From: a virus
Taxonomy: Duplodnaviria; Heunggongvirae; Uroviricota; Caudoviricetes
Strand: one strand, 5' to 3'
IMG/VR virus record: IMGVR_UViG_2690316149_000014
Coordinates: 1-17,767 of that record
DNA length: 17,767 nucleotides
Made by a program: the position numbers and the translations under genes. Below the pieces are notes generated by a model. It was given only the letters and a program-made list of their open reading frames with translations. It did no database searches and was not told the origin of the DNA. This document shows positions 1-16,614 of this stretch, piece after piece (the first letter of the stretch is position 1; every line of letters begins with the position of its first letter).

Positions 1-1248
1 ATGGCACTGAATATTCCATTCAGAAATGCGTACTATCGTTTTGCATCCAGTTACTCATTTCTCTTTTTTATTTCCTGGTCGCTGTGGTGGTCGTTATACG
101 CTATTTGGCTGAAAGGACATCTAGGGTTGACAGGGACGGAATTAGGTACACTTTATTCGGTCAACCAGTTTACCAGCATTCTATTTATGATGTTCTACGG
201 CATCGTTCAGGATAAACTCGGTCTGAAGAAACCGCTCATCTGGTGTATGAGTTTCATCCTGGTCTTGACCGGACCGTTTATGATTTACGTTTATGAACCG
301 TTACTGCAAAGCAATTTTTCTGTAGGTCTAATTCTGGGGGCGCTATTTTTTGGCTTGGGGTATCTGGCGGGATGCGGTTTGCTTGATAGCTTCACCGAAA
401 AAATGGCGCGAAATTTTCATTTCGAATATGGAACAGCGCGCGCCTGGGGATCTTTTGGCTATGCTATTGGCGCGTTCTTTGCCGGCATATTTTTTAGTAT
501 CAGTCCCCATATCAACTTCTGGTTGGTCTCGCTATTTGGCGCTGTATTTATGATGATCAACATGCGTTTTAAAGATAAGGATCACCAGTGCGTAGCGGCA
601 GATGCGGGAGGGGTAAAAAAAGAGGATTTTATCGCAGTTTTCAAGGATCGAAACTTCTGGGTTTTCGTCATATTTATTGTGGGGACGTGGTCTTTCTATA
701 ACATTTTTGATCAACAACTTTTTCCTGTCTTTTATGCAGGTTTATTCGAATCACACGATGTAGGAACGCGCCTGTATGGTTATCTCAACTCATTCCAGGT
801 GGTACTCGAAGCGCTGTGCATGGCGATTATTCCTTTCTTTGTGAATCGGGTAGGGCCAAAAAATGCATTACTTATCGGAGTTGTGATTATGGCGTTGCGT
901 ATCCTTTCCTGCGCGCTGTTCGTTAACCCCTGGATTATTTCATTAGTGAAGTTGTTACATGCCATTGAGGTTCCACTTTGTGTCATATCCGTCTTCAAAT
1001 ACAGCGTGGCAAACTTTGATAAGCGCCTGTCGTCGACGGTCTTTCTGATTGGTTTTCAAATTGCCAGTTCGCTTGGGATTGTGCTGCTTTCAACGCCGAC
1101 TGGGATACTCTTTGACCACGCAGGCTACCAGACAGTTTTCTTCGCAATTTCGGGTATTGTCTGCCTGATGTTGCTATTTGGCATTTTCTTCTTGAGTAAA
1201 AAACGCGAGCAAATAGTTATGGAAACGCCTGTACCTTCAGCAATATAG
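1..1248 (+). CDS. cscB: Sucrose:H+ symporter, LacY / oligosaccharide:H+ symporter family (CscB-like), 415 aa
   Basis: Full ORF from ATG at base 1 to TAG 1246-1248; polytopic hydrophobic profile typical of 12-TM MFS permeases; recalled similarity to LacY/CscB. Gene symbol rests on recalled identity, not a search. Confidence 0.8.
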   Translation: MALNIPFRNAYYRFASSYSFLFFISWSLWWSLYAIWLKGHLGLTGTELGTLYSVNQFTSILFMMFYGIVQDKLGLKKPLIWCMSFILVLTGPFMIYVYEPLLQSNFSVGLILGALFFGLGYLAGCGLLDSFTEKMARNFHFEYGTARAWGSFGYAIGAFFAGIFFSISPHINFWLVSLFGAVFMMINMRFKDKDHQCVAADAGGVKKEDFIAVFKDRNFWVFVIFIVGTWSFYNIFDQQLFPVFYAGLFESHDVGTRLYGYLNSFQVVLEALCMAIIPFFVNRVGPKNALLIGVVIMALRILSCALFVNPWIISLVKLLHAIEVPLCVISVFKYSVANFDKRLSSTVFLIGFQIASSLGIVLLSTPTGILFDHAGYQTVFFAISGIVCLMLLFGIFFLSKKREQIVMETPVPSAI

Positions 1249-1256
1249 ACGTAAAC

Positions 1257-1301
1257 TTTTTCCGGTTGTTGTCGATAGCTCTATATCCCTCAACCGGAAA
1301 A
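1257..1301. repeat. Perfect 11-bp inverted repeat (TTTTCCGGTTG ... CAACCGGAAAA) with ~23-nt spacer, 9 nt after the cscB stop
   Basis: Seen directly. No T-run follows the stem on either strand, so it is not a canonical intrinsic terminator. Confidence 0.6.
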
Positions 1302-1689
1302 TAATAATAGTAAAATGCTTAGCCCTGCTAATAATCGCCTAATCCAAACGCCTCATTCATGTTCTGGTACAGTCGCTCAAATGTACTTCAGATGCGCGGT
1401 TCGCTGATTTCCAGGACATTGTCGTCATTCAGTGACCTGTCCCGTGTATCACGGTCCTGCGAATTCATCAAGGAATGCATTGCGGAGTGAAGTATCGAGT
1501 CACGCCATATTTCGCTATCAGGATTCTGTGTGATGGTTACATCGCCCGGCTCAGGGCTGTTTAGTCATCAGCGCTTTCTGACAGTGCTGAGATTTCAACC
1601 TGTTGCAGTAAAAATGAGTAGATATAAGGCAAGTGTGCTGCCAAACCCATCTTTTACGGGGTGAAGGTAGATTTCGTTTGAAGGGTATC

Positions 1690-1704
1690 TGGTGTCCCCT
1701 GCAG
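1690..1704 (-). other. Attachment-site core (attR-like): 15-nt copy of the 3' end of tRNA-Arg argW (CTGCAGGGGACACCA on minus strand); chromosome/prophage boundary
   Basis: Plus strand reads TGGTGTCCCCTGCAG, the reverse complement of the recalled argW 3' end. Chromosomal gene (cscB) on the left, phage genes on the right. No intact tRNA is present. Confidence 0.6.
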
Positions 1705-1777
1705 ACATCTACTTGACGAGGCAGGGGATTGATTGGAATGGTGTTTTTTAGATATGAGAAATATTTTACCCGCTATT

Positions 1778-1978
1778 TTACCCATTGGCGCGGCTTAAGA
1801 GCTTATTTTTGAATTCACAATGGTCACGATATAACCATCTTGCTCGCCCGTGGATAACTTTGGCTTTAGGCAGGTCCCCGGACTTAATCCGGTCATAGAT
1901 GAAGGTTTTACCGAAGCCAGTATCGGCCATGATGAATTTCAAATCAACCAGTGAATCAGGCTGTAGTTCGTGTTGCAT
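1778..1978 (-). CDS. torI: Excisionase / recombination directionality factor, AlpA-TorI family, 66 aa
   Basis: 66-aa ORF 73 bp inside the att core; size and basic winged-helix-like sequence (…FGKTFIYDRIKSGDLPKAKVIHGRARW…) match recalled TorI of KplE1. GGAG about 10 nt upstream of the ATG. Confidence 0.7.
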   Translation of the reverse strand: MQHELQPDSLVDLKFIMADTGFGKTFIYDRIKSGDLPKAKVIHGRARWLYRDHCEFKNKLLSRANG

Positions 1979-1997
1979 GAGTGCTATCTCCGAATAG

Positions 1998-2013
1998 GGA
2001 ATCGAACCTGCAA
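1998..2013 (-). other. Second argW-derived block: 16-nt match to the tRNA-Arg T-arm (TTGCAGGTTCGATTCC), contiguous in the tRNA with the 1690-1704 block
   Basis: Plus strand GGAATCGAACCTGCAA is the reverse complement of recalled argW nt 45-60. Lies 20-35 nt upstream of the torI ATG. Confidence 0.55.
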
Positions 2014-2022
2014 ATCAGGCAA

Positions 2023-2044
2023 TAAAAAAACCGCATTGATGCGG
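2023..2044 (-). terminator. Putative intrinsic terminator (minus strand): CCGCA/TGCGG stem followed by a T8 run
   Basis: Plus strand shows A8 then CCGCATTGATGCGG; on the minus strand this is hairpin plus U-run, 60 nt after the stop of the 2104..2475 gene. Confidence 0.45.
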
Positions 2045-2103
2045 CAATGGCAGGTCTGGATATCTTGAGAAATGAACAGGCCTCATCGAGTGTGAGGCTG
2101 TGG

Positions 2104-2475
2104 TTAGTCCTTGCGTAACTCGCTAATTCTTCTGTAAGTCTCTGGTGCTTTGTTTCCGTGTATCTTCATTTCAGACTTCAACAGAGCAACGAGGGAATCC
2201 CATTCGTTGAGGATGCCTTTGAATGCCGGAACGCGCTTTGCAACCTTGTCGAATGAATCTCTGATTTCTGGGATCTGCTCAACAAGTGCAACGCATCGTC
2301 GGAAATCGGCTGCGTCATGTGGAGCGCCGAAGTGATGACCATAGATATTCTTTTTCAGTCCACATGCGATTGAGGCAAGAGTTGCGCTACTGATGCCGAC
2401 ATCGCCAGTCGATTGCCATTTCAAAACCTTCATAGCCAAATCTGACATTTCTTGTCTCCAATAAAAAACCGCCAT
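2104..2475 (-). CDS. Hypothetical phage protein (123 aa from ATG 2475; 114 aa if started at ATG 2448)
   Basis: ATG 2475 overlaps the upstream ORF stop as TGATG (translational coupling); the internal ATG at 2448 has RBS GGAGACAAG. No family recognised. Confidence 0.5.
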   Translation of the reverse strand: MAVFYWRQEMSDLAMKVLKWQSTGDVGISSATLASIACGLKKNIYGHHFGAPHDAADFRRCVALVEQIPEIRDSFDKVAKRVPAFKGILNEWDSLVALLKSEMKIHGNKAPETYRRISELRKD

Positions 2476-2482
2476 CAGGCGG
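2463..2482 (-). terminator. Short terminator-like hairpin (CCGCC-ATCA-GGCGG plus T6 on minus strand) overlapping the 2475 start codon
   Basis: Seen directly; 5-bp GC stem only, so it may simply be coding sequence. Confidence 0.3.
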
Positions 2483-2642
2483 CTTGGTGTTCTTTCAGTT
2501 CTTCAATTCGAATATTGGTTACGTCTGCATGTGCTATCTGCGCCCATATCATCCAGTGGTTATAGCAGTCGTTGATGTCCTCTGCTTCGATAACCCTGTC
2601 GAATGGCTCTCCATTCCATTCACCTGTGACTCGGAAGTGCAT
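2475..2642 (-). CDS. Hypothetical small protein, 55 aa (MHFRVTGEWNGEPFDRV…)
   Basis: Below the 60-aa track cutoff. ATG 2642-2640 preceded by RBS GGAGATGA; stop overlaps the next start (TGATG). Confidence 0.4.
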   Translation of the reverse strand: MHFRVTGEWNGEPFDRVIEAEDINDCYNHWMIWAQIAHADVTNIRIEELKEHQAA

Positions 2643-2714
2643 TTATCATCTCCATAAAACAAAACCCGCCGTAGCGAGTTCAGATAAAAGAAATCCCCGC
2701 GAGTGCGAGGATTG

Positions 2715-2804
2715 TTATTGTCTTTTCTTCGTGCATTTGTCGCACTTTCGGCACCATCCAGATAGGCACATCCGTCCGCAATTAACACATATAGGCCACA
2801 TCAT
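2715..2804 (-). CDS. Cys-rich micro-protein, 29 aa (MMWPICVNCGRMCLSGWCRKCDKCTKKRQ), zinc-ribbon-like
   Basis: Below the track cutoff. RBS AGAGGA; ATG overlaps the upstream stop as ATGA; four CxxC-type pairs. Confidence 0.35.
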   Translation of the reverse strand: MMWPICVNCGRMCLSGWCRKCDKCTKKRQ

Positions 2805-3079
2805 TTTTCCTCTTTTGGTTTATGAATCTGAATGGTCATGCCGCTTTGAGTGGTGACTACAATGACAGAACCAGGCTGAAGACTGTTAAGATTGAATGCT
2901 TCGTAAAACGAATCCAAGGCCAGCGTTTTTTTATTCTTTCGGTTCCACCAACGCCATCCCTTGCTACAGGCTACACTGACAATCCACTGCCCACTCCTGT
3001 AAGCCATATAAAACCAGATGAGCAAAACCTGAAGGAATGCTATCCAGTCAATAATCGTATATTTCGCGAAGGAGTCCAT
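2801..3079 (-). CDS. Hypothetical protein, 92 aa, N-terminal hydrophobic helix
   Basis: Track ORF 2801..3082 begins at GTG; the ATG at 3079 has RBS GAGGTG and overlaps the upstream stop (TGATG). Confidence 0.5.
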   Translation of the reverse strand: MDSFAKYTIIDWIAFLQVLLIWFYMAYRSGQWIVSVACSKGWRWWNRKNKKTLALDSFYEAFNLNSLQPGSVIVVTTQSGMTIQIHKPKEEK

Positions 3080-3945
3080 CACTTCACCTCCTGCTGCGGT
3101 GCTGCTGGCATTTCACGCCAGTGCGTAACTGAGTGCGGATCCGGATATTCAGTGCCATCATCCCAGCGATTGCCATTCCACATTGCAGACCACATCTCAC
3201 CGTCTTCATACATGACCATTACCGGAATTAACTTATCCGGCATTCGCTCACTACAGCTTATCCAACCATCCGGAGTTACCGGAACTTGCGGAATGGCTGT
3301 CTGCTCTCGAACGTCATTAGGCGCTATAGGTTCTGCTGCCAACTGACTGGCATATTTGTTAATGGTAACGATAAGCTCTTGCTCAGCCTCATCCAGACAA
3401 TCACCGATACCTCGCCTGTCACCGTCAAAATCATCGAAATCGGCACGAATCTTGGCAACCTTCAGGATTGCGGACAACACTTCACTAGGAATTACCGGAT
3501 AGTTGGTTGACGTTTCCGCGATTTCCCGAAAATTATTGGTTGACGAATTCTTATTTTCCCGAAAGTTTCCGGACTGAAGCATGGCGGCGCGGCAGGCGTT
3601 CCAGCCTCTCACCTCTGCAATAGCGGCAACAGCATCAACCGCGTACATGCTAAGAGGATTAGGCATTGGTTTTTCTTCCGGTACTACTGGAACGGGGGGA
3701 GCGGCGTAGACCTCAATAATTCCATTATCAATAGGCCATTCTCCATCCTTGAGGTAGTCACTTGTGCCGTCAACTTGCTGTTCTGCAATGTGGAATGCAC
3801 CTATTGGTTTTGCTTCCAGCGATGCCAGAGCAATCCGTGCCAGTTCTTCCGCTTCTTCTGCTGGCAGTACAACGTTGCTACCCGGTCCGTATGTTTCGCG
3901 CCACTGCTTGATTGTCAGCAGTCGCTCTTTGGTTATAGTGGTCAT
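3079..3945 (-). CDS. Phage protein with C-terminal DUF551-like domain, 288 aa
   Basis: C-terminus (…DGWISCSERMPD…VTHWREMPAAP) resembles the recalled DUF551 signature of lambdoid early-region proteins; N-terminal two-thirds unassigned. Confidence 0.65.
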   Translation of the reverse strand: MTTITKERLLTIKQWRETYGPGSNVVLPAEEAEELARIALASLEAKPIGAFHIAEQQVDGTSDYLKDGEWPIDNGIIEVYAAPPVPVVPEEKPMPNPLSMYAVDAVAAIAEVRGWNACRAAMLQSGNFRENKNSSTNNFREIAETSTNYPVIPSEVLSAILKVAKIRADFDDFDGDRRGIGDCLDEAEQELIVTINKYASQLAAEPIAPNDVREQTAIPQVPVTPDGWISCSERMPDKLIPVMVMYEDGEMWSAMWNGNRWDDGTEYPDPHSVTHWREMPAAPQQEVK

Positions 3946-3955
3946 TTGTTATGCC

Positions 3956-4153
3956 TCAATACACGAAATCTGTTTTAAATTCATGGTTACATTCTGGACA
4001 GCATGTTTCGTAACCTTTTATTTCTTCACATGCCTGTTTAGCTCCAGAAAACTCCCAGAAATCTGGATCACAAAGCAGATCGAAATTGTGACCACATTTG
4101 GGACATTCGGTATCAAGTGACAGACTCCAGTAGGCAGTGATGTTTTTATCCAT
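3956..4153 (-). CDS. Small zinc-ribbon-like protein, 65 aa (two CPxCG-type pairs)
   Basis: Track ORF 3956..4186 overlaps the upstream gene; the internal ATG at 4153 has RBS AGGAG and sits 1 nt after the upstream TGA. Motifs CPKCGH…CCPECNH. Confidence 0.55.
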   Translation of the reverse strand: MDKNITAYWSLSLDTECPKCGHNFDLLCDPDFWEFSGAKQACEEIKGYETCCPECNHEFKTDFVY

Positions 4154-4154
4154 A

Positions 4155-4655
4155 TCACTCTCCTTTGATGCGAATGCCTGTTGCAATGCTGTTTATGATG
4201 CTGTCAGTGCATGGGGTAGAAAGCTGGGCATCTCCAGCAATTTTCATGACCTCAACATCTGCATATCGAATACCGAGGTGTATCAGACCGGCTATGCCTG
4301 ACTTAAGCCGAGCATTTTCCATAAATAGAACTTTTGCCCGCTGTTTTTCTGCTTCAAGCTCAACACGCAGCTTCCCTACCGTTAGCGCAATATCCTCGTT
4401 CTCCTGGTCGCGGCGTTTGATGTATTGCTGGTTTCTTTCCAGCTCATCCAGCAGCGCCCGAACTACATCAGCGGTTTTCTGGCACTGGTCAACAATGCTA
4501 ACGTCACAACCAGTATCGAAACCGTCCTCAGTTTCAAAGCGGAGCTCTACAGAGTCGCCGTCGATATCAGATGGTTCGAACCCGGCAATGTTTTCCAGAA
4601 TGCCGATTATGCTTTCTGCGCTATGACGTAATGCGCGTTTGTCGATGTTGCTCAT
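4155..4655 (-). CDS. Hypothetical phage protein, 166 aa, acidic N-terminus and coiled-coil centre
   Basis: RBS GGAGG 7 nt upstream; start overlaps the upstream stop as ATGA. Confidence 0.6.
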   Translation of the reverse strand: MSNIDKRALRHSAESIIGILENIAGFEPSDIDGDSVELRFETEDGFDTGCDVSIVDQCQKTADVVRALLDELERNQQYIKRRDQENEDIALTVGKLRVELEAEKQRAKVLFMENARLKSGIAGLIHLGIRYADVEVMKIAGDAQLSTPCTDSIINSIATGIRIKGE

Positions 4656-4933
4656 TGGGCGGCCTCCGGTATTTTTCTTGCGCTGAATTGAGGTACATGT
4701 TCCATTTCAACCGTGAATACACCTACGCTCTCACCGTCAATGAATAGCTCGATATCCAACGGCCAGTCAGATTCCAAGCCGTCATGATTGTCAAAATAAT
4801 CAAGGGAGGCATCCTGAGACAAGCATTCCAATTCCCACTCAGAAATGAGCTCATCGATGTGTCGAGGATCGAGAAAAAACGCATCCTCAGGAAACGTGCC
4901 TGCATCTCTAACTACGTACTGGATTACGCTCAT
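4652..4933 (-). CDS. Hypothetical acidic protein, 93 aa
   Basis: Track ORF 4652..4987 trimmed to the ATG at 4933, which has RBS AGGAGG and overlaps the upstream stop as ATGA. Confidence 0.55.
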   Translation of the reverse strand: MSVIQYVVRDAGTFPEDAFFLDPRHIDELISEWELECLSQDASLDYFDNHDGLESDWPLDIELFIDGESVGVFTVEMEHVPQFSARKIPEAAQ

Positions 4934-5373
4934 TGGTTGCCTCCTTTGCGAAGCTGGGCAGCAATACTTACGCATATCTCTGCGCATCTAATCAGCCCCG
5001 GAACGTTCTTGTTTGGCCCAACTTCACCATCAACAAAATCAATCATCGCGTTACGAGCCATCTCCACACCCTGCGCCCGCACTTCAGCCAGGAAGGCGTC
5101 GGTGGCTGGGGTTCCCTCTACCACTAACCCTACTGGAGCTAGATATTCTTTCATCCCCGCATTCTCCACAGCCAGCGCCGCGCACTTGGCCTCAAGGTTA
5201 TCAATCGTGATTCCAGCAGAACGACACTCACGCAACGCTGTTTCTAGTTTTGATTCAAGTTCACCGAACTTACGCACCAGATATTCAGCGTTTGTTTCGT
5301 TAACCTTTAAATCACTTGGGATGCATTTACCTTTCAGAAATCCATCCATCTCAATTAGTGACATTTGTTTCAT
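4930..5373 (-). CDS. Hypothetical phage early protein, ~147 aa
   Basis: Track ORF 4930..5391 starts at GTG with no RBS; the ATG at 5373 follows GGAG/GGGAAG. Start uncertain. Confidence 0.55.
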   Translation of the reverse strand: MKQMSLIEMDGFLKGKCIPSDLKVNETNAEYLVRKFGELESKLETALRECRSAGITIDNLEAKCAALAVENAGMKEYLAPVGLVVEGTPATDAFLAEVRAQGVEMARNAMIDFVDGEVGPNKNVPGLIRCAEICVSIAAQLRKGGNQ

Positions 5374-5668
5374 TTCTTCCCACTCCGCCACATCGCATTC
5401 AGATATTTGTTTTGATTCACTGATGCTTAAGAATTTCTCTTAAGCAATTCCTCTCTCGATGGCATTGGCTTTACGCGTTGGCGAATAATCATTTCTGCCG
5501 GAAGAATGCCGGGATTGTATGCAAGACCTCTCATGATTTACTCTCCACGAACTGGTCAATAGCCATGCTAAGTGACACACCTAAAGTCTCGATATGCTGC
5601 TGAATATCCTGTAGCGTCTGCGCCTGAGATAACAGGATTTCACGGTTGCATAACTCTTTAACCAGATG

Positions 5669-5831: not shown

Positions 5832-6125
5832 TCAGTCATTACTGATAGCGCCATAGCGTGAGCGGTAATTACGCAGGCGCGGGTCGATTTCAGGGAAGTG
5901 GGTATATGTGGCTTTGCGGAATGGTCGGATTGATGTCTGGTAAATTCGCTCTCGTTCTTCTTTCTCTGCAAGCCATATGCAGTGGCGAAACTCCTTTTCC
6001 TCTTTCGTTTCCTGCGGTAGAGACATTATTCGATCGTAGTTTTTTCTGAATTTATCCAGCACCTCCGATACGGAATTGCCGGAACAGCGGCGCGGGTCAT
6101 CCGCACCATATAGAGGCGCTGGCAT
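5832..6125 (-). CDS. Hypothetical phage protein, 97 aa
   Basis: RBS AGGAGAA 5 nt before the ATG at 6125; operon position between the exonuclease and downstream accessory genes. Confidence 0.55.
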   Translation of the reverse strand: MPAPLYGADDPRRCSGNSVSEVLDKFRKNYDRIMSLPQETKEEKEFRHCIWLAEKEERERIYQTSIRPFRKATYTHFPEIDPRLRNYRSRYGAISND

Positions 6126-6141: not shown

Positions 6142-6690
6142 TTATTTAGCTAACTTTTTCCAGATCGCTGAAACGTATTTGGCTTGGTGGATGGCATCAT
6201 CAAGCGCGTTGTGGCGAGTTCCTTTGAATGGCATATCTCGCTTAGGATCGAATCCTATTACCTTCCCAAGTTCGACGATTGTTCTTACGTCGCGGTCATT
6301 CCACCACTGCCACGGAACTGGCTGCCCTGTCAGCGAATAACTGTTGCGGAGAATAACGCAGTCAAATGATGCTCCATTCCCCCAAACCTGAACGAGTTTG
6401 TGGTTGGCGTTCTTTATGATGAATTCAGATAACCATGAAAGAGCCGTTGAAAGCTCTTGAGTGTTGCTGGTTAGCGATTTTCTGGCTTCTTCACTCTGTT
6501 CCATCCACCATAAAATCGTTGAAGCGTCAGGACGCGCCCGATATCGCATTGATGACTCAAGCGAGATATTTACCGAGAACTCTTCTCCTGTTTCTCCGGT
6601 ATTCGGGTCAAAGAATACCGCCCCAATAGAAATAACTGGCGCATATGGCCCGTTGCCCATTGTTTCAAGGTCAACCATTAAGTGATTCAT
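6142..6690 (-). CDS. 3'-5' exonuclease, DnaQ-like DEDDh family, 182 aa
   Basis: Exo I motif MVDLETMG near the N-terminus and Exo III-like H…ALDDAIHQAKY near the C-terminus; RBS AAGGA. Confidence 0.8.
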   Translation of the reverse strand: MNHLMVDLETMGNGPYAPVISIGAVFFDPNTGETGEEFSVNISLESSMRYRARPDASTILWWMEQSEEARKSLTSNTQELSTALSWLSEFIIKNANHKLVQVWGNGASFDCVILRNSYSLTGQPVPWQWWNDRDVRTIVELGKVIGFDPKRDMPFKGTRHNALDDAIHQAKYVSAIWKKLAK

Positions 6691-6698
6691 GTAAGTCC

Positions 6699-7205
6699 TT
6701 AAATTGCGTGAATAGCGTGACGAGGGAAGGGGAGAGTTACTGGTGCAAAGGGTATATCGTCGTCAAAATCCATCGGAGGTTCGTTGTGTTGTGCTGGTGA
6801 TGATTGCTGCTGTGGTTTCTGTGATTGCCTGCTGGCTGCTTGTTGTTTGCTGTCGCCAATGCCGCCAAGCATTTGCATCACGCCATTAATTCCGACATGA
6901 ACCTCGGTTGTGTAACGGTCTTGCCCTGACTGGTCTTTCCACTTTCTGGTTCTCAGCATTCCCTCGAAATAAACCTGATCACCTTTTTTCACATACTGCC
7001 CCACGACCTCAGCCAGTTTCCCGGATACAGCAACACGATGCCATTCAGTCAATTCCTTTTGCTCGCCAGTATTTTTATCTCGCCATTGTTCTGACGTGGC
7101 TATTGTCAGGTTAGCGAACGCTGTTCCTGATGGTGAGTATCGAACTTCCGGGTCTTGTCCTACCCGACCAAGGATAATCACCTTATTTACGCCTCTGCTT
7201 GCCAT
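6699..7205 (-). CDS. ssb: Single-stranded DNA-binding protein (phage SSB), 168 aa
   Basis: N-terminal OB-fold signature ([23 protein letters not shown]…), Gln/Pro-rich linker and acidic C-terminal tail …MDFDDDIPF. Confidence 0.9.
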
Positions 7206-7913
7206 TTATGCCGCCTGTTTTAGTTCGTTAACTCTGATGTTCATTACCTGAACGCATTTAGCCTGCGCATCCTCATTGCCAGCCATTAATTGCCAGTCAT
7301 GCTGATAACGTTCTATGAGTTTTTTCTTGTCAGTTTCTGTTGATGCATAATCGCTGAAGTCTTTCAGGATTTGTTCGCAGTCAACCGATGGAGATTTCTG
7401 GTTGGTATTTTCTGGTGATGGTTTGTTATCTGATGCTGGGATTGCCCATCCCGGCAGCGATGGAGGGAGCCAGTAAAATCCTGTTCCATCTTTCAGTTTT
7501 GCCCTGTGCCATCCCTGCTTTTTATCGAGAGATGTTTGTGCGAAACCTTCCTCAAGGTTATACAGATACCGACCGATTCCCCATTGAACGGCAGCACGCT
7601 TCATTGCACCGGAACGACCACCTTTGACGGCTTCTACCTGCGTGTTTTCAGCAGCATCCCATTTGGTTACCCATTCGGAATCAATCTTGATTGATATGCC
7701 GCATTCAACTCCGCCGTTGTTGGGAATATCGCGGTATTCATTGCGCCATCCTGCTTTGCCGCAAACATCGTCCAGGCGTTTCATGATTGCCCTGTTCGTG
7801 ACATAAGCCAGCACCATAGCCCACACCTTTCCATCGCGTGTTTTACCGCTTTGCTGTATTCGCCATTCGATATCTTCAGGGCTGAATGGCTCATCGAATT
7901 TATTCAAATCCAT
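7206..7913 (-). CDS. Single-strand annealing protein, Rad52/22-like family, 235 aa
   Basis: Motif …GGRSGAMKRAAVQWGIGRYLY… recalled as typical of phage Rad52/22-type recombinases; RBS GAGGTGA; stop abuts the ssb ATG (TAAATG). Confidence 0.65.
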   Translation of the reverse strand: MDLNKFDEPFSPEDIEWRIQQSGKTRDGKVWAMVLAYVTNRAIMKRLDDVCGKAGWRNEYRDIPNNGGVECGISIKIDSEWVTKWDAAENTQVEAVKGGRSGAMKRAAVQWGIGRYLYNLEEGFAQTSLDKKQGWHRAKLKDGTGFYWLPPSLPGWAIPASDNKPSPENTNQKSPSVDCEQILKDFSDYASTETDKKKLIERYQHDWQLMAGNEDAQAKCVQVMNIRVNELKQAA

Positions 7914-8460: not shown

Positions 8461-9429
8461 TTAGTAGGTTATTTTTGTTGCGAATACTTCGCCTTTTACG
8501 ATGGCTGTTATGATATTTTTAGCAACATCTTCTGATGCGCCAACCTTGATAAGGTCAGCAAGTATTTTGTTATTTACTTCTTTCCGGTGAGCTTTATCCT
8601 TTGCTCTACGCTCTTCTTCGTCCTTGATTCTTTTTTCTTCTGCTATTCTGGCTTGCTCTTTTGCTTCAGCCTCGCGACGGGTTCGTTCAGCCTCCTCCTG
8701 TGCTTTTCTGCGTTCTGCTTCAATTGCTGCCTGCTTTTCTCTTTCAGCTCGTTCTGCTGCCTCTTTTGCTTCGCGCTGTGCTCGTTGCTCGGCTTCAATG
8801 CGTTCACGCTCTGCACGTTCCGCTGCGGCCTTAGCTTCTGCTTCTCGCCTTGCTGCTGCTTCAATTTCGGCTTTTGCCTTTGCTTCGGCTTCTGCTCTGG
8901 CTTTCTCTTCAGCTTCTCTTTTTAATCGTTCTTCATGCTCTCGCTTTTCCTGCTCCGCTTTGAGTCTTGCCTCTTCTCTTTGGCGGTCAAATTCGCGATC
9001 CATCAAAATCGCTATTTCATGGTCAGACTCAATTTGCTTTGCGAGAGCTTCAGCTGCTGCCTTAGCTTCTTCTTCGGCTTTAATCCGCGCCTGTTCTTCC
9101 TCATAATCAGTAAGAGGCTGGCGCGCCTTGGCTTTCAGTTCATCAAGGCGATCACGCACTGTCTTGCGGTTGGCATCAATTAGCTTTGGAATTTCCTTAA
9201 GTTCAGCAACAAGGTCTTTGCCAATACCATCGAGATATGTTTTCGTCTGCGCAACTTTATACGCCAGAGAAGCGATCTCCTTTCTGCCCTTTGCCGTTGT
9301 GATATCAGGCACAAAGGACATAACTTCACGTTCAACCTTTTGAAGGATTTCTTCAATCTGGTCGGCAGACTGAAATACAGTCATTGCATTTGCTTTTTCA
9401 ATAACAACTAAATCTGTTACTTCACTCAT
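8461..9429 (-). CDS. Hypothetical phage protein, 322 aa, with long Glu/Ala/Lys/Arg-rich low-complexity coiled-coil centre
   Basis: Strong RBS GGAGGA; central ~150 aa are EAKR repeats, with matching GC-rich DNA repeats at 8600-9000. Confidence 0.65.
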   Translation of the reverse strand: MSEVTDLVVIEKANAMTVFQSADQIEEILQKVEREVMSFVPDITTAKGRKEIASLAYKVAQTKTYLDGIGKDLVAELKEIPKLIDANRKTVRDRLDELKAKARQPLTDYEEEQARIKAEEEAKAAAEALAKQIESDHEIAILMDREFDRQREEARLKAEQEKREHEERLKREAEEKARAEAEAKAKAEIEAAARREAEAKAAAERAERERIEAEQRAQREAKEAAERAEREKQAAIEAERRKAQEEAERTRREAEAKEQARIAEEKRIKDEEERRAKDKAHRKEVNNKILADLIKVGASEDVAKNIITAIVKGEVFATKITY

Positions 9430-10724: not shown

Positions 10725-10770
10725 TGCCAATCTTTTCCGTTTGGCTTCCAGCGTCCTGCTGATGGCTAAA

Positions 10771-10855
10771 GAATACTGTAGGTATTTTATTGTGTAAATA
10801 CCCAAGGTATTTATTTTTGATGAAATAATGATAAACAAATGAATACAAAGGATAT
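10771..10855. promoter_or_regulatory. OL operator cluster / pL region: three sites of form GAATAC-N5-GTATT
   Basis: Sites at ~10771-10786, 10797-10811 and a weaker one at ~10841-10855 share half sites with the OR operators. Confidence 0.55.
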
Positions 10856-11330: not shown

Positions 11331-12047
11331 TCAAACCAGTCTGAGTTTTGTCTCAATTGCAACGCCTATAATCTTGCAGTTTCCATTGATTGGCACGAGA
11401 GGCCATGCAGGATTAAGTCCCTTGAGGTATTTATTTCCGCCGTCGATTATCAGCTTCTTGAATGTTGCTTCGTTAGAGTCAGAAAGTTTTGCTATGACCA
11501 AGCTGCCGTTGATCGCCTCCCTTCCGGTATCGAAAAGAACGAATGTTCCCTCTGGAATGCTTAACCCAACCGGTGCCGTCATTGAATCACCTTCCACTTT
11601 AAGCCAGAACGCATTACCTTGAATATGCGCGTCAGACTCAAGCCAAACATCTATGTCTTTAATGGTGTATGGTTCGCATGCTTCACACCACGAGCCAGCC
11701 TGGATACTGCTTAACACCGGATACCTCTTTCCTGCTCTGTATTCCCCTGCATACCTTACGTTGGCATCGCTCTTAAGGCTTTCTGCCTGTTCTGCAACCT
11801 TGGCAGCAATTGACTGGCTAAAATCAGCAATTGAGACTTGCAACAATCGTGCAAAACCAGATGCAACCTCAACGTTTAGCGCGTTTCTGCCATTAAGATA
11901 ATGCCCTACCGCTCCTTGGGTGATACCCAGTTCATCAGCGATTGAGTATTGGGTTATTCCCAATTCTTTCTTTTTTGACTCATACAAAGCCTTAAGCCGC
12001 TTAGCGTCTTCGAGCTGTTCTGTCGTCAGTGATTTTTTATTTTCCAT
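11331..12047 (-). CDS. cI: CI-type prophage repressor: N-terminal XRE-family HTH plus C-terminal LexA/S24-like autocleavage domain, 238 aa
   Basis: HTH …QYSIADELGITQGAVGHYLNG…; C-terminal S24 signature …GDSM…/…KL…; no SD before the ATG (leaderless, as for lambda pRM); divergent from cro across an operator region. Confidence 0.9.
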   Translation of the reverse strand: MENKKSLTTEQLEDAKRLKALYESKKKELGITQYSIADELGITQGAVGHYLNGRNALNVEVASGFARLLQVSIADFSQSIAAKVAEQAESLKSDANVRYAGEYRAGKRYPVLSSIQAGSWCEACEPYTIKDIDVWLESDAHIQGNAFWLKVEGDSMTAPVGLSIPEGTFVLFDTGREAINGSLVIAKLSDSNEATFKKLIIDGGNKYLKGLNPAWPLVPINGNCKIIGVAIETKLRLV

Positions 12048-12082
12048 AGCTTAATTCTAATAGCTAAGGTACTTAAACTAAA

Positions 12083-12123
12083 AATACCCTGAGTATTGAT
12101 TGCTTTGAATACCTGTAGTATTC
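12083..12123. promoter_or_regulatory. OR operators with divergent pRM/pR promoters
   Basis: Two sites, AATACCCTGAGTATT (~12083-12097) and GAATACCTGTAGTATTC (~12107-12123), with centres ~25 bp apart. Candidate pR -35 TTGATT / -10 TATTCT; candidate pRM -10 TAGAAT placed for a leaderless cI start. Confidence 0.6.
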
Positions 12124-12153
12124 TTTGTTCATGGTTAATAACGGAGAGTGCAT

Positions 12154-12769: not shown

Positions 12770-12931
12770 ATGACAAAACGTCGTAAGAAATACCAGGAAA
12801 AAGAAGAGATTCGACACCCTGATTCACCTGAGGGATTAGTGGTAGCCGCAGCAAATAACAGGGCGTTCGCAGAGCGCCTTGTTGGTGTTTACAGACTAGC
12901 CAAAGCAGGAGTGAAACATGGGCGTCGTTAA
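12770..12931 (+). CDS. Hypothetical small basic protein, 53 aa (MTKRRKKYQEKEEIRHPDSPEGL…)
   Basis: Below the track cutoff. RBS AGGAG 6 nt before the ATG; 3' end overlaps the initiator gene start by 14 nt. Confidence 0.4.
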   Translation: MTKRRKKYQEKEEIRHPDSPEGLVVAAANNRAFAERLVGVYRLAKAGVKHGRR

Positions 12932-13808
12932 GTTAGCTGATTACAGGCATAACCCTGTACAACATCAGGAGGCATCCAGTATGGGGTATGTCTCTATACA
13001 CCGCCAGTTTATGGACAGCAGGCTCTATAAGGACTCTCAGGCAGTACATCTTTGGCTTCACTTAATCCTCAAGGCTAATCACGAATCTACTGTCGTCAAT
13101 ACGGATATCGGTCCGATAACTGTTGAGCGCGGTCAGATGATAACTGGACGCCCGTCGCTGGTCAGAGAAACATTCATCCCCGACAACAAAGTTCGGAGCT
13201 TATTACGGACTTTTGAGTCGAAAGGTATGCTTAATATTTGCTCGATGGGGAAGAAATTTAGCCTGTTTACAATCGTTAAATATGACGATTTTCAGGCAAA
13301 AAATTGTCCAACGGTTGTCCAACAGTTGTCCAACGCAAACACCAGTAATGGTGCGGCTCTCAGCGGAGATTGTCCAACGGTTGTCCAACAGTTGTCCATA
13401 AACAATAATATAAATAATATCTCTAATACTGACGTATTAGAGAGTGCTACAGCAGACAAAAAGTCTGACAAGAAAAAACCTTCCGTCAGCTGTCAGGATG
13501 TTGTCGATGCTTACCACGAAATCCTTCCTGAAGCGCCAAGAATCCGCGCACTGAATGACAAGCGTAAAAACCAGATCCGAACGTTCTGGCGCAAAGCCGG
13601 AGTGATAACCCGCCAGCTTGACGGGCATGGGTTCACGATGCAGGACTGGAGAAATTATTTGAGCTACGTAGGCGAAAATTGCCGATGGATGTTCGAAGAA
13701 CGCCCAAACCATCAACGCGGAACCGTCTGGCACAAAAAGGGATTTGATTTCCTGCTTAACGACAATACCTACCTGAAAGTTCGTGAGGGTGAACACGATG
13801 ACCGATAA
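12918..13808 (+). CDS. Replication initiation protein (O-like; P22 gene 18-type), 296 aa, with origin iterons inside the coding sequence
   Basis: Position after cII and before a DnaB-type helicase; internal iterons and AT-rich tract; the tandem peptide repeat NCPTVVQQLSN is the translation of the iterons. Confidence 0.75.
   Translation: MGVVKLADYRHNPVQHQEASSMGYVSIHRQFMDSRLYKDSQAVHLWLHLILKANHESTVVNTDIGPITVERGQMITGRPSLVRETFIPDNKVRSLLRTFESKGMLNICSMGKKFSLFTIVKYDDFQAKNCPTVVQQLSNANTSNGAALSGDCPTVVQQLSINNNINNISNTDVLESATADKKSDKKKPSVSCQDVVDAYHEILPEAPRIRALNDKRKNQIRTFWRKAGVITRQLDGHGFTMQDWRNYLSYVGENCRWMFEERPNHQRGTVWHKKGFDFLLNDNTYLKVREGEHDDR
13304..13445. repeat. Replication origin: six TTGTCCAAC iterons in two triplets (13304-13334 and 13370-13400) followed by an AT-rich tract (13400-13445)
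   Basis: Seen directly; 11-bp periodicity within each triplet; the triplets are a ~36-bp direct repeat. Confidence 0.7.
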
Positions 13809-15533: not shown

Positions 15534-15800
15534 ATGGACGAATCAAGAAAGCAGTTTGAAGAATGGTTTGAAAATTACACCGGATGTGATCCTAAAAATA
15601 AAATATACGCCAATATGGTTGAGATGTATTGGCAAGCGTGGCAGGCATCGCGAGCAGCTATCGAGATTGAGTGTCCTGGAAAAAGAGAGCGTGAGGCATT
15701 TTCTACCGATTTCGAGGATGGGGTCACATTTGGTTATAACGACGCAATTAGTGAATGCGAAGGACGGATTCGCGCTGCTGGAGTCAAAGTGAAGGGGTGA
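15534..15800 (+). CDS. Hypothetical protein, 88 aa (paralogue A of the MDESRKQFEE family)
   Basis: Shares N-terminal MDESRKQFEE, central W.AWQASRAAIE and C-terminal IRAAG.K motifs with the 16258..16614 product. Confidence 0.65.
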   Translation: MDESRKQFEEWFENYTGCDPKNKIYANMVEMYWQAWQASRAAIEIECPGKREREAFSTDFEDGVTFGYNDAISECEGRIRAAGVKVKG

Positions 15801-16230: not shown

Positions 16231-16257
16231 CCCAAAAAATCATCGATGGAGAGTGAT

Positions 16258-16614
16258 ATGGACGAATCAAGAAAGCAGTTTGAGGAATACGTTGCCAAAA
16301 AATTGAGATTACCATTCGAGATGATAACCGAGGCAAGAAATGGTGATAGGTACTTCGCATTTTCAAGCATGGATATTCGTCACTCCTTAAATGAGTGGTG
16401 GACTTTATGGCAGGCATCGCGAGCAGCTATTGAACTGGATATCGACTGGCCAGAATCGAATGACGACTTTTGGAAAGATGGTGAAGAAGGTGCTTATGCG
16501 ATGGGTTATGAGGATGGGCGTGACAAAACGGTAATTGCAGTAATGAAAGCTATCAGAGCCGCTGGAATTAAAGAGAAGAATTTCGATGAAGCAAACAATC
16601 TTCCTCCGAAGTAA
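16258..16614 (+). CDS. Hypothetical protein, 118 aa (paralogue B of the MDESRKQFEE family)
   Basis: Track ORF 16246..16614 trimmed to the ATG at 16258 (RBS GGAGAG); shares the three paralogue A motifs. Confidence 0.65.
   Translation: MDESRKQFEEYVAKKLRLPFEMITEARNGDRYFAFSSMDIRHSLNEWWTLWQASRAAIELDIDWPESNDDFWKDGEEGAYAMGYEDGRDKTVIAVMKAIRAAGIKEKNFDEANNLPPK

Follow-up and report, generated by a model that had tools for sequence, protein, structure and literature searches.

Among the described systems closest to the locus analysed here is the eaA gene of phage P22, whose 317-aa product (EaA, NP_059588.1) is encoded in the early-left accessory region, with an Ead/Ea22-like gene on its upstream side and xis on its downstream side. 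The gene order in P22 is xis-eaC-eaG-eaA-eaI-eaD(Ead/Ea22-like)...abc2. The middle of EaA is a dATP/dGTP pyrophosphohydrolase domain (PF04447; aa 83-179, E 1.2e-49), which is followed by a DUF551 domain. Phage 933W has L0065, annotated as 'similar to EaA protein of P22'. The Ea22 family of lambda and the Stx phages occupies the same genome region; Ea22 is described as tetrameric and pro-lysogenic (PMC7093339, PMC10834534), its published variants are mosaics whose C-terminal domains are acidic, and the Stx-phage variant V2 ends in DUF551 (PMC10834534). The exo-xis/ea genes are described in the literature as modulating the lysis-lysogeny decision. DUF551 has been termed a 'portable' domain, present in Ea22 V2, YfdS and MazZ-type enzymes (PMC10834534). 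Deleting yfdS confers sensitivity to H2O2, and overexpression of yfdQRST inhibits replication initiation (PMC4776307, PMC10834534). Our literature search on DUF551 found no functional study of the domain.

We analysed a 17,767-nt stretch of viral DNA, referred to below as the window. It opens with a sugar transporter gene, after which a lambdoid prophage begins. The gene studied here (the target) sits in the distal accessory part of the early-left (pL) operon of this lambdoid/P22-like E. coli prophage, among the following genes:

1-1248, at the window start: LacY-type sugar transporter gene (cscB / oligosaccharide MFS transporter in RefSeq in related E. coli)
1778-1978, minus strand: TorI-type excisionase
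2104-2642, minus strand: small ORFs
2801-3082, minus strand: DUF4752 gene, directly downstream of the target
3079-3945, minus strand: complete target gene, ATG at 3945-3943 and TGA at 3081-3079, a 288-aa EaA-like ('Eaa') mosaic protein
3956-4186, minus strand: Zn-ribbon protein
4155-4655, minus strand: Ead/Ea22 homologue (PF13935, E 1.3e-20), two genes upstream of the target
5832-6125, minus strand: Abc2 anti-RecBCD protein
6142-6690, minus strand: 3'-5' exonuclease
6699-7205, minus strand: SSB
7206-7913, minus strand: Rad52-like recombinase
11331-12047: cI-like repressor

Rightward replication genes, DnaB included, lie beyond the cI-like repressor. This arrangement parallels that of P22, and the target was found at the early-left location between xis and the Ead/Ea22-like gene that is expected of an EaA. 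We looked for paralogy between the target and the neighbouring ea genes within the window and found none.

The initial annotation had described, from an ORF of 288 aa, a two-part protein in which a Trp-rich DUF551-like C-terminus is attached to an acidic, Pro/Ala-rich N-terminal part of no nameable family. The ORF is real and runs from ATG to stop on the minus strand, whereas the plus-strand reading of 3079-3945 has stops throughout and is not an ORF. From the ORF, Pfam and composition results, that observation therefore stands, with the strand, which had been left unstated, corrected to minus. With a pI of 4.47 and a net charge of -22, the protein as a whole is acidic. The acidity claimed for the N-terminal part holds as well (aa 1-226; pI 4.48, net charge -16), but its enrichment in Pro and Ala is only mild (20% of residues together). 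The identical 288-aa protein is present in NCBI on 7 contigs, for example as CTR47481.1, 'Eaa protein / DUF551 domain-containing protein [Escherichia coli]', and the target has more than 8,000 homologues in Escherichia, Salmonella, Klebsiella and Raoultella; close homologues, too, go by the name 'Eaa protein'. The target is an unremarkable, previously catalogued representative of a known prophage accessory family that lacks functional characterisation.

BLASTP aligned the target with P22 EaA at E 3e-13 (28% identity, 25% gaps); the two ends aligned and the middle did not. The N-terminal leader is common to both proteins (MTTITKER...ELARIALASL...YAAPPVP, target aa 1-90), as is the C-terminal DUF551 (PV.PGGWISCSERMPD...HW..P.PP, starting GWISCSERMP). 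In place of the PF04447 domain, the middle of the target has a helix, a linker with an 11-aa repeat and a two-helix hairpin. By its position, its leader and its C-terminal domain, the target is very probably an EaA-like mosaic from which the enzyme module of the prototype is missing. L0065 of 933W aligns with the target over DUF551, and is shorter, with a different leader variant and a different core. What L0065 and YfdS of the E. coli prophage CPS-53/KplE1 have in common with the target is DUF551, which makes up just the final 20% of the target. The findings on YfdS are not transferable to the target, as the two proteins have DUF551 cores of unrelated sequence.

The leader and DUF551 that EaA carries around PF04447, together with the occurrence of PF04447 in 3 of 150 representative homologues, would fit a target that is itself a MazG/MazZ-type dATP/dGTP pyrophosphohydrolase like P22 EaA, with a catalytic core diverged past recognition. 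We regard this as highly improbable, since the target had no PF04447 match at E<=1, its middle shares no similarity with that of EaA, and the linker repeat and two-helix hairpin found there have no sequence or fold match in the PDB. Searches of Pfam, NCBIfam and PADLOC detected no catalytic family in the target. PADLOC-DB gave no family for it at E<=0.01, which is weak evidence, as that database covers defence systems and not anti-defence.

The C-terminal domain was recognised correctly at the outset, and five Trp residues lie within the final 62 residues of the target:

3094-3267, minus strand: DUF551 (PF04448), aa 227-284 (Pfam E 6e-18; 65.9 bits, gathering score 22; the entire 68-position profile, 1-68)

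Both flank motifs of the domain, W-I-x-x-S-E-R-M-P and T-H-W-x-x-x-P-x-x-P, are present, and the invariant positions in the alignment (A3) are W8, I9, S12, P16, W56, P60 and P63. Modelled alone by AlphaFold2 (AF2) from 31 diverse sequences, DUF551 gave a small beta domain with pLDDT 83 and pTM 0.68. This model matched DUF551 models in BFVD from phages of Enterobacteria, Pseudomonas, Vibrio, Cellulophaga and Synechococcus (TM 0.65-0.81, probability 1.00). In the PDB, DUF551 alone has no sequence relative, and Foldseek returned nothing with E <0.4. Tudor, Sm/Hfq and V-ATPase N-terminal beta-barrels appeared as weak hits (best E about 1) that reflect a generic shape, and we do not claim homology to them.

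The view of DUF551 as a portable, attached module was borne out. Among the 150 best representatives sharing the N-terminal part, Pfam content was DUF551 in 46, Ead_Ea22 in 6, the dATP/dGTP pyrophosphohydrolase in 3 and no Pfam domain in the remainder; in P22 EaA, the leader and DUF551 flank PF04447. DUF551 is also joined to variable partners, as had been proposed, but variability is not confined to the N-terminal part. Between near-constant flanks, PVTPDGWISCSERMP and THWMPLPEPPQEVK, we counted about 31 types of hypervariable DUF551 core, 33-65 aa long, among 149 homologues (a rough count, in which a few cores are clipped by the search pattern). From this core diversity between the flanks it follows that, in the closest relatives, the swapped part is the DUF551 core and the constant part is the N-terminal backbone.

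For aa 1-226, the absence of a family is true for the curated domain libraries only: Pfam, NCBIfam and PADLOC gave no match, whereas a query of 1.84 billion cluster representatives returned 1,742 relatives at E<=1e-3, and PHROG families with no assigned function also matched (phrog_3323, phrog_5117 and phrog_660 over aa 1-82 to 1-127; phrog_14306 over aa 94-240). A single known full-length family, which had been named as the finding that would overturn the two-part description, did not emerge from the domain search; phrog_60 extends over target aa 1-287 but fits just 168 of its 461 profile positions. The description in two parts is itself an undercount, as the alignment, the AF2 model and the breakpoints divide the N-terminal part into at least four segments in addition to DUF551. 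The segmentation below is agreed by three lines: the alignment of close homologues, the match boundaries of the 150 representatives and the AlphaFold2 model.

3802-3945, minus strand: aa 1-48, N-terminal leader (MTTITKERL...ELARIALASLEA); AF2 helical hairpin 6-19 and 29-44, pLDDT about 65-73
3667-3801, minus strand: aa 49-93, variable beta cassette with conserved flanks LASLEA.P and VYAAPPVPVVP
3568-3666, minus strand: aa 94-126, helix module with the conserved end GWNACRAAMLQSG; HSP ends cluster at aa 123-127
3502-3567, minus strand: aa 127-148, low-complexity linker with the 11-aa tandem repeat NFRENKNSSTN / NFREIAETSTN, pLDDT <50
3328-3501, minus strand: aa 149-206, 'module B' helical hairpin (PVIPSEVLSAILKVAKIRADFDDFDGDRRGIGDCLDEAEQELIVTINKYASQLAAEP); AF2 helices 154-172 and 178-204, pLDDT about 70
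3268-3327, minus strand: aa 207-226, Pro-rich linker ending PVTP
3679-3690, minus strand: first PVxP junction, PVVP, aa 86-89; HSP starts cluster at aa 82-84
3487-3498, minus strand: second PVxP junction, PVIP, aa 150-153; HSP starts cluster at aa 146-152
3271-3282, minus strand: third PVxP junction, PVTP, aa 222-225; HSP starts cluster at aa 222

Several of these segments are exchangeable in their own right. The leader contains a cassette at aa 10-34 with alternative versions in homologues, and the beta cassette at aa 49-93 has many unrelated cores in relatives, its identity among representatives being about 0.5 in the core and 0.76-0.9 in the flanks. The GWNACRAAMLQSG motif that closes the helix module is the C-terminal end of many family members. 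The 11-aa tandem repeat is encoded by direct repeat D5 (3503-3534 and 3536-3567). Module B is also found independently in other architectures (HSP starts at aa 146-152; alignment A5), and its profile gave only chance helix matches against PDB sequences (E>=0.1). Homologues of about 400 aa have additional modules of ~110 aa inserted at the aa 207-226 linker. The helix, the hairpin and DUF551 are each preceded by a PVxP motif, and the DNA is alike at the three sites (CCAGTAGTACC at PVVP; CCGGTAATTCC and CCGGTAACTCC at the remaining two). Alignment breakpoints are concentrated at aa 44, 93, 123-127, 146-158, 205-207, 222 and 240. Identity among representatives alternates along the protein: the junctions reach 0.76-0.9, the cores no more than about 0.5, and the DUF551 core as little as about 0.2-0.3.

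The full-length AF2 model was poor overall (pLDDT 57.8), the two helical hairpins and DUF551 being its sole confident regions. Residues 49-150 and 205-224, which together make up half of the protein, scored below 50, and so did the strands 47-53 and 75-80 of the beta cassette; owing to the poor mosaic alignment, a fold in this half may have been missed. Foldseek of the full model against the PDB returned nothing with E <0.4, and a PDB sequence search with the target protein gave only a chance match (E 1.2). Structure prediction, run on the full protein and on DUF551 alone, supported a domain at the C-terminus but, with aa 49-150 below 50, no single domain in the N-terminal part. The reading of the ~200 N-terminal residues as one effector domain is not supported, since AF2 gave just two short hairpins (pLDDT about 70), at least four segments are exchanged, and no catalytic family was detected.

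With the Ea22 family the target has in common the genome region, mosaicism, an acidic portable C-terminal domain and, in some genomes, modules. An Ea22-type pro-lysogenic regulator, that is, an oligomeric coiled coil with a variable acidic C-terminal domain that biases lysis-lysogeny, has to be weighed on these grounds, all the more as the published Ea22 variants are themselves mosaic with V2 ending in DUF551 (PMC10834534), Ead_Ea22 occurs in 6 of the 150 representatives, and three homologues (P0126, P0188 and P0182) have an Ea22 N-terminus joined to target-like aa 40-226 plus DUF551. The marks of the Ea22 family are nevertheless absent from the target: no PF13935 match was obtained at E<=1, and the AF2 model contains neither a long helix nor a coiled coil. 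The window encodes a true Ea22 homologue of its own at 4155-4655, which has no significant similarity to the target. An Ea22-type regulator is in our judgement quite unlikely.

We then considered how this allele was assembled. At the nucleotide level, no phage record contained the entire target gene, and the best-covered locus in 5,426 complete E. coli genomes spans 89% of it. A chromosomal locus (L004) matches window positions 3074-3846 with 98.1% identity and, after an unmatched stretch, is similar again at 3923-3962 (87.5%). The match ends 5 nt beyond the target stop codon. Because the only unmatched stretch is the one between 3846 and 3923, L004 differs from the target only in the cassette at aa 9-33. 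A second locus (L005), on a ~100-kb plasmid, is 98.8% identical at 3234-3962; below that position, in the DUF551 core and everything downstream, it is unrelated. The breakpoints against these two loci fall at the cassette flank, the DUF551 flank and the gene boundary. The target allele thus looks, from its DNA, like a recombinant of the L004 and L005 backbones. In addition to the three Ea22 fusions, other genomes fuse target modules with the N-terminus of the ORF at 4930-5391. Taken together, these alignments show that the modules, like the DUF551 core, are swapped between phages at conserved junction sequences.

A dedicated mechanism, such as a diversity-generating retroelement or similar, could also be thought to have diversified the DUF551 core, given about 30 unrelated cores between near-identical flanks. 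We consider this scarcely credible. The cores vary by length (33 to 65 aa) instead of by point substitutions, and the flanking DNA is 98-99% identical until sharp breakpoints, as homologous exchange predicts. The ORFs scanned in the window include no reverse transcriptase, and the target, its DUF551-encoding part (3079-3267) included, takes part in no template/variable repeat pair; on these two grounds, a diversity-generating retroelement is excluded for this window.

The end of the gene carries a further sequence element:

3085-3091, minus strand: GGAGGTG, putative Shine-Dalgarno sequence of the DUF4752 gene, within the codons of the tail QQEVK

The terminal codons read cag-gag-gtg-aag-TGA-TG, which places GGAGGTG five bases 5' of the DUF4752 ATG, and the target stop overlaps the DUF4752 start in TGATG (3081-3077). 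A PQ(Q)EV-type tail ends 65 of the 150 representatives regardless of the preceding module. We infer that the tail is probably kept mainly as a ribosome-binding/coupling signal and a recombination junction, and less for protein function.

Such extreme shuffling of modules, including fusions with pieces of neighbouring genes, raises the possibility that the target is evolutionary debris, an in-frame fusion of ea fragments tolerated in a non-essential region, whose modules have no collective function. Half of the protein is predicted to be disordered, and intact homologues are labelled as pseudogene fragments in RefSeq, which would fit such debris. However, the homologues examined retain intact reading frames, and the homologues in total number more than 8,000 across four genera. 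The leader-to-tail organisation recurs, the exact allele is present on 7 contigs, and the gene has a well-placed start and, as read from the sequence, translational coupling to the DUF4752 gene. We therefore consider debris unlikely.

The joint explanation that we prefer, and consider probable, is that the target is, by position and by family, a homologue of P22 eaA, a non-essential pL accessory gene, encoding a 'beads-on-a-string' mosaic with a non-enzymatic binding or adaptor role. The beads would be the helical leader, the beta cassette, the helix, the repeat linker, the helical hairpin, the Pro-rich linker and the C-terminal DUF551. The protein would be made early from pL, would bind proteins from the host or from rival elements, and may thus act as an early adaptor or decoy with effects on host physiology, the lysis-lysogeny choice or defence. 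A binding role is suggested by the absence of a catalytic domain, the net charge of -22 and the hypervariable core on a conserved scaffold; the long flexible linkers and the short helical hairpins are likewise consistent with such a role. Neither the sequence nor the fold searches turned up a relative of known function. For the binding mechanism itself we claim only a tentative case, with the chances somewhat against it, and the binding, adaptor or decoy role is drawn from the lack of enzymatic signatures and the pattern of variation.

A more specific proposal, which we regard as doubtful though worth stating, is that the EaA-like family is a combinatorial 'cassette' protein with adaptive variation, in which the DUF551 hairpin binds a diversifying target or evades immune sensors. 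Hypervariable cores would lie between conserved junctions and be shuffled within the phage population by homologous recombination. The junctions would be the leader start, LASLEA.P / YAAPPxPVVP, GWNACRAAML, the PVxP linkers, GWISCSERMP / THWMPLPEPP and the RBS-encoding tail. The target bound by the variable hairpin, as counter-defence, could belong to the host or to a rival phage, and the sensors evaded could be host immune sensors. The hypervariability of DUF551 could also stem from weak constraint and rampant lambdoid recombination, not from an arms race.

As one allele of a very abundant, annotated prophage accessory family, the target matters little in itself. It is a clean example of how lambdoid early-region genes are rebuilt module-wise at short conserved junctions, and of how such mosaicism confuses automated annotation, since RefSeq splits intact homologues into pseudogene fragments. 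The one aspect with prospects for future work is DUF551 and its cassette-like hypervariability. Should the hypervariable DUF551 core turn out to recognise targets, the family would offer a ready-made natural library for mapping phage-host or phage-phage protein interactions across the Enterobacteriaceae, including Stx phages and phage-plasmids.

Within the EaA-like mosaic gene (288 aa; 3079-3945, minus strand), we observed a 33-nt tandem duplication (3503-3567), whose copies are 75% identical and whose product is the 11-aa repeat NFRENKNSSTN/NFREIAETSTN. This repeat forms the linker joining the helix that ends in the motif GWNACRAAMLQSG to module B, a predicted helical hairpin (aa 149-206). 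At the 3' end of the gene, the start of the downstream DUF4752 gene overlaps the stop codon in a TGATG, and a Shine-Dalgarno sequence, GGAGGTG, lies inside the last codons (both within 3077-3091). This arrangement may be the cause of the ...PQQEVK tail that is conserved across the family.

Further downstream on the minus strand, several terminator-like hairpins are clustered in the region 2030-2713:

2713-2692, minus strand, terminator-like hairpin
2681-2662, minus strand, terminator-like hairpin
2485-2466, minus strand, terminator-like hairpin
2098-2080, minus strand, terminator-like hairpin
2045-2030, minus strand, terminator-like hairpin

The region 1200-5600 has 11 terminator-like sites versus 3.7 expected. 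The hairpin 2485-2466 overlaps the mechanical start of the ORF 2104-2475, the true start of which may be further downstream; the 'Eag protein' of a related genome has a length of only 60 aa.

The left end of the window contains a host gene and an excisionase gene directly following it:

1-1248, host cscB-like LacY/MFS transporter gene
1778-1978, TorI-type excisionase gene

No integrase was found between these two genes, and no tRNA gene anywhere in the window. We take the arrangement of 1-1978 to resemble the torI end of the KplE1/CPS-53-type prophages, in which int is at the end opposite to torI. In one related genome, a DUF4942 pseudogene fragment was observed at the equivalent of about 1391-1480.

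The repressor region is flanked by a 45-nt inverted repeat (10768-10812 and 12082-12126; 73% complementary), which plausibly represents the OL and OR operator clusters. Five copies of a repeat containing TTGTCCAAC (13292-13398) form two clusters, with a spacing of 11 nt inside each, and look like origin iterons. The genes concerned are:

11331-12047, cI-like gene, between the arms of the inverted repeat
12918-13808, O-like replication gene, containing the TTGTCCAAC repeats

Two nin-region ORFs, 15534-15800 and 16246-16614, have two near-identical stretches in common:

15534-15564 and 16258-16288, 31 nt, 97% identical
15639-15664 and 16408-16433, 26 nt, 96% identical

The start codon of the first ORF falls within the 31-nt stretch. 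These ORFs could be either paralogues or a further instance of module sharing. The early-left operon also encodes a 322-aa coiled-coil protein (8461-9429), rich in Glu, Ala, Lys and Arg and having internal DNA repeats; it matched no Pfam family, and its annotation in relatives is 'TolA' or 'coiled-coil domain-containing'.

Homologues of the EaA-like gene are intact as ORFs of 282 aa in an E. coli chromosomal locus (L004, 601-1449) and 296 aa in a plasmid locus (L005, 422-1312). At both places, RefSeq/PGAP records a tiny 'DUF551 domain-containing protein' CDS together with several pseudogene pieces marked 'incomplete'. Evidence-based gene calling seems to break down on the mosaic architecture of these genes.

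EaA-like genes were also seen on plasmids of E. coli with sizes of about 93-102 kb, such as NZ_CP075059.1 (pCTX_B2_4) and that of L005. Of the 6,461 places where the gene was matched at the nucleotide level, 533 are on plasmids; among the plasmids listed, many have a size of ~95-100 kb and two DUF551 genes each. Therefore, the circulation of EaA-like genes extends to what look like phage-plasmids.
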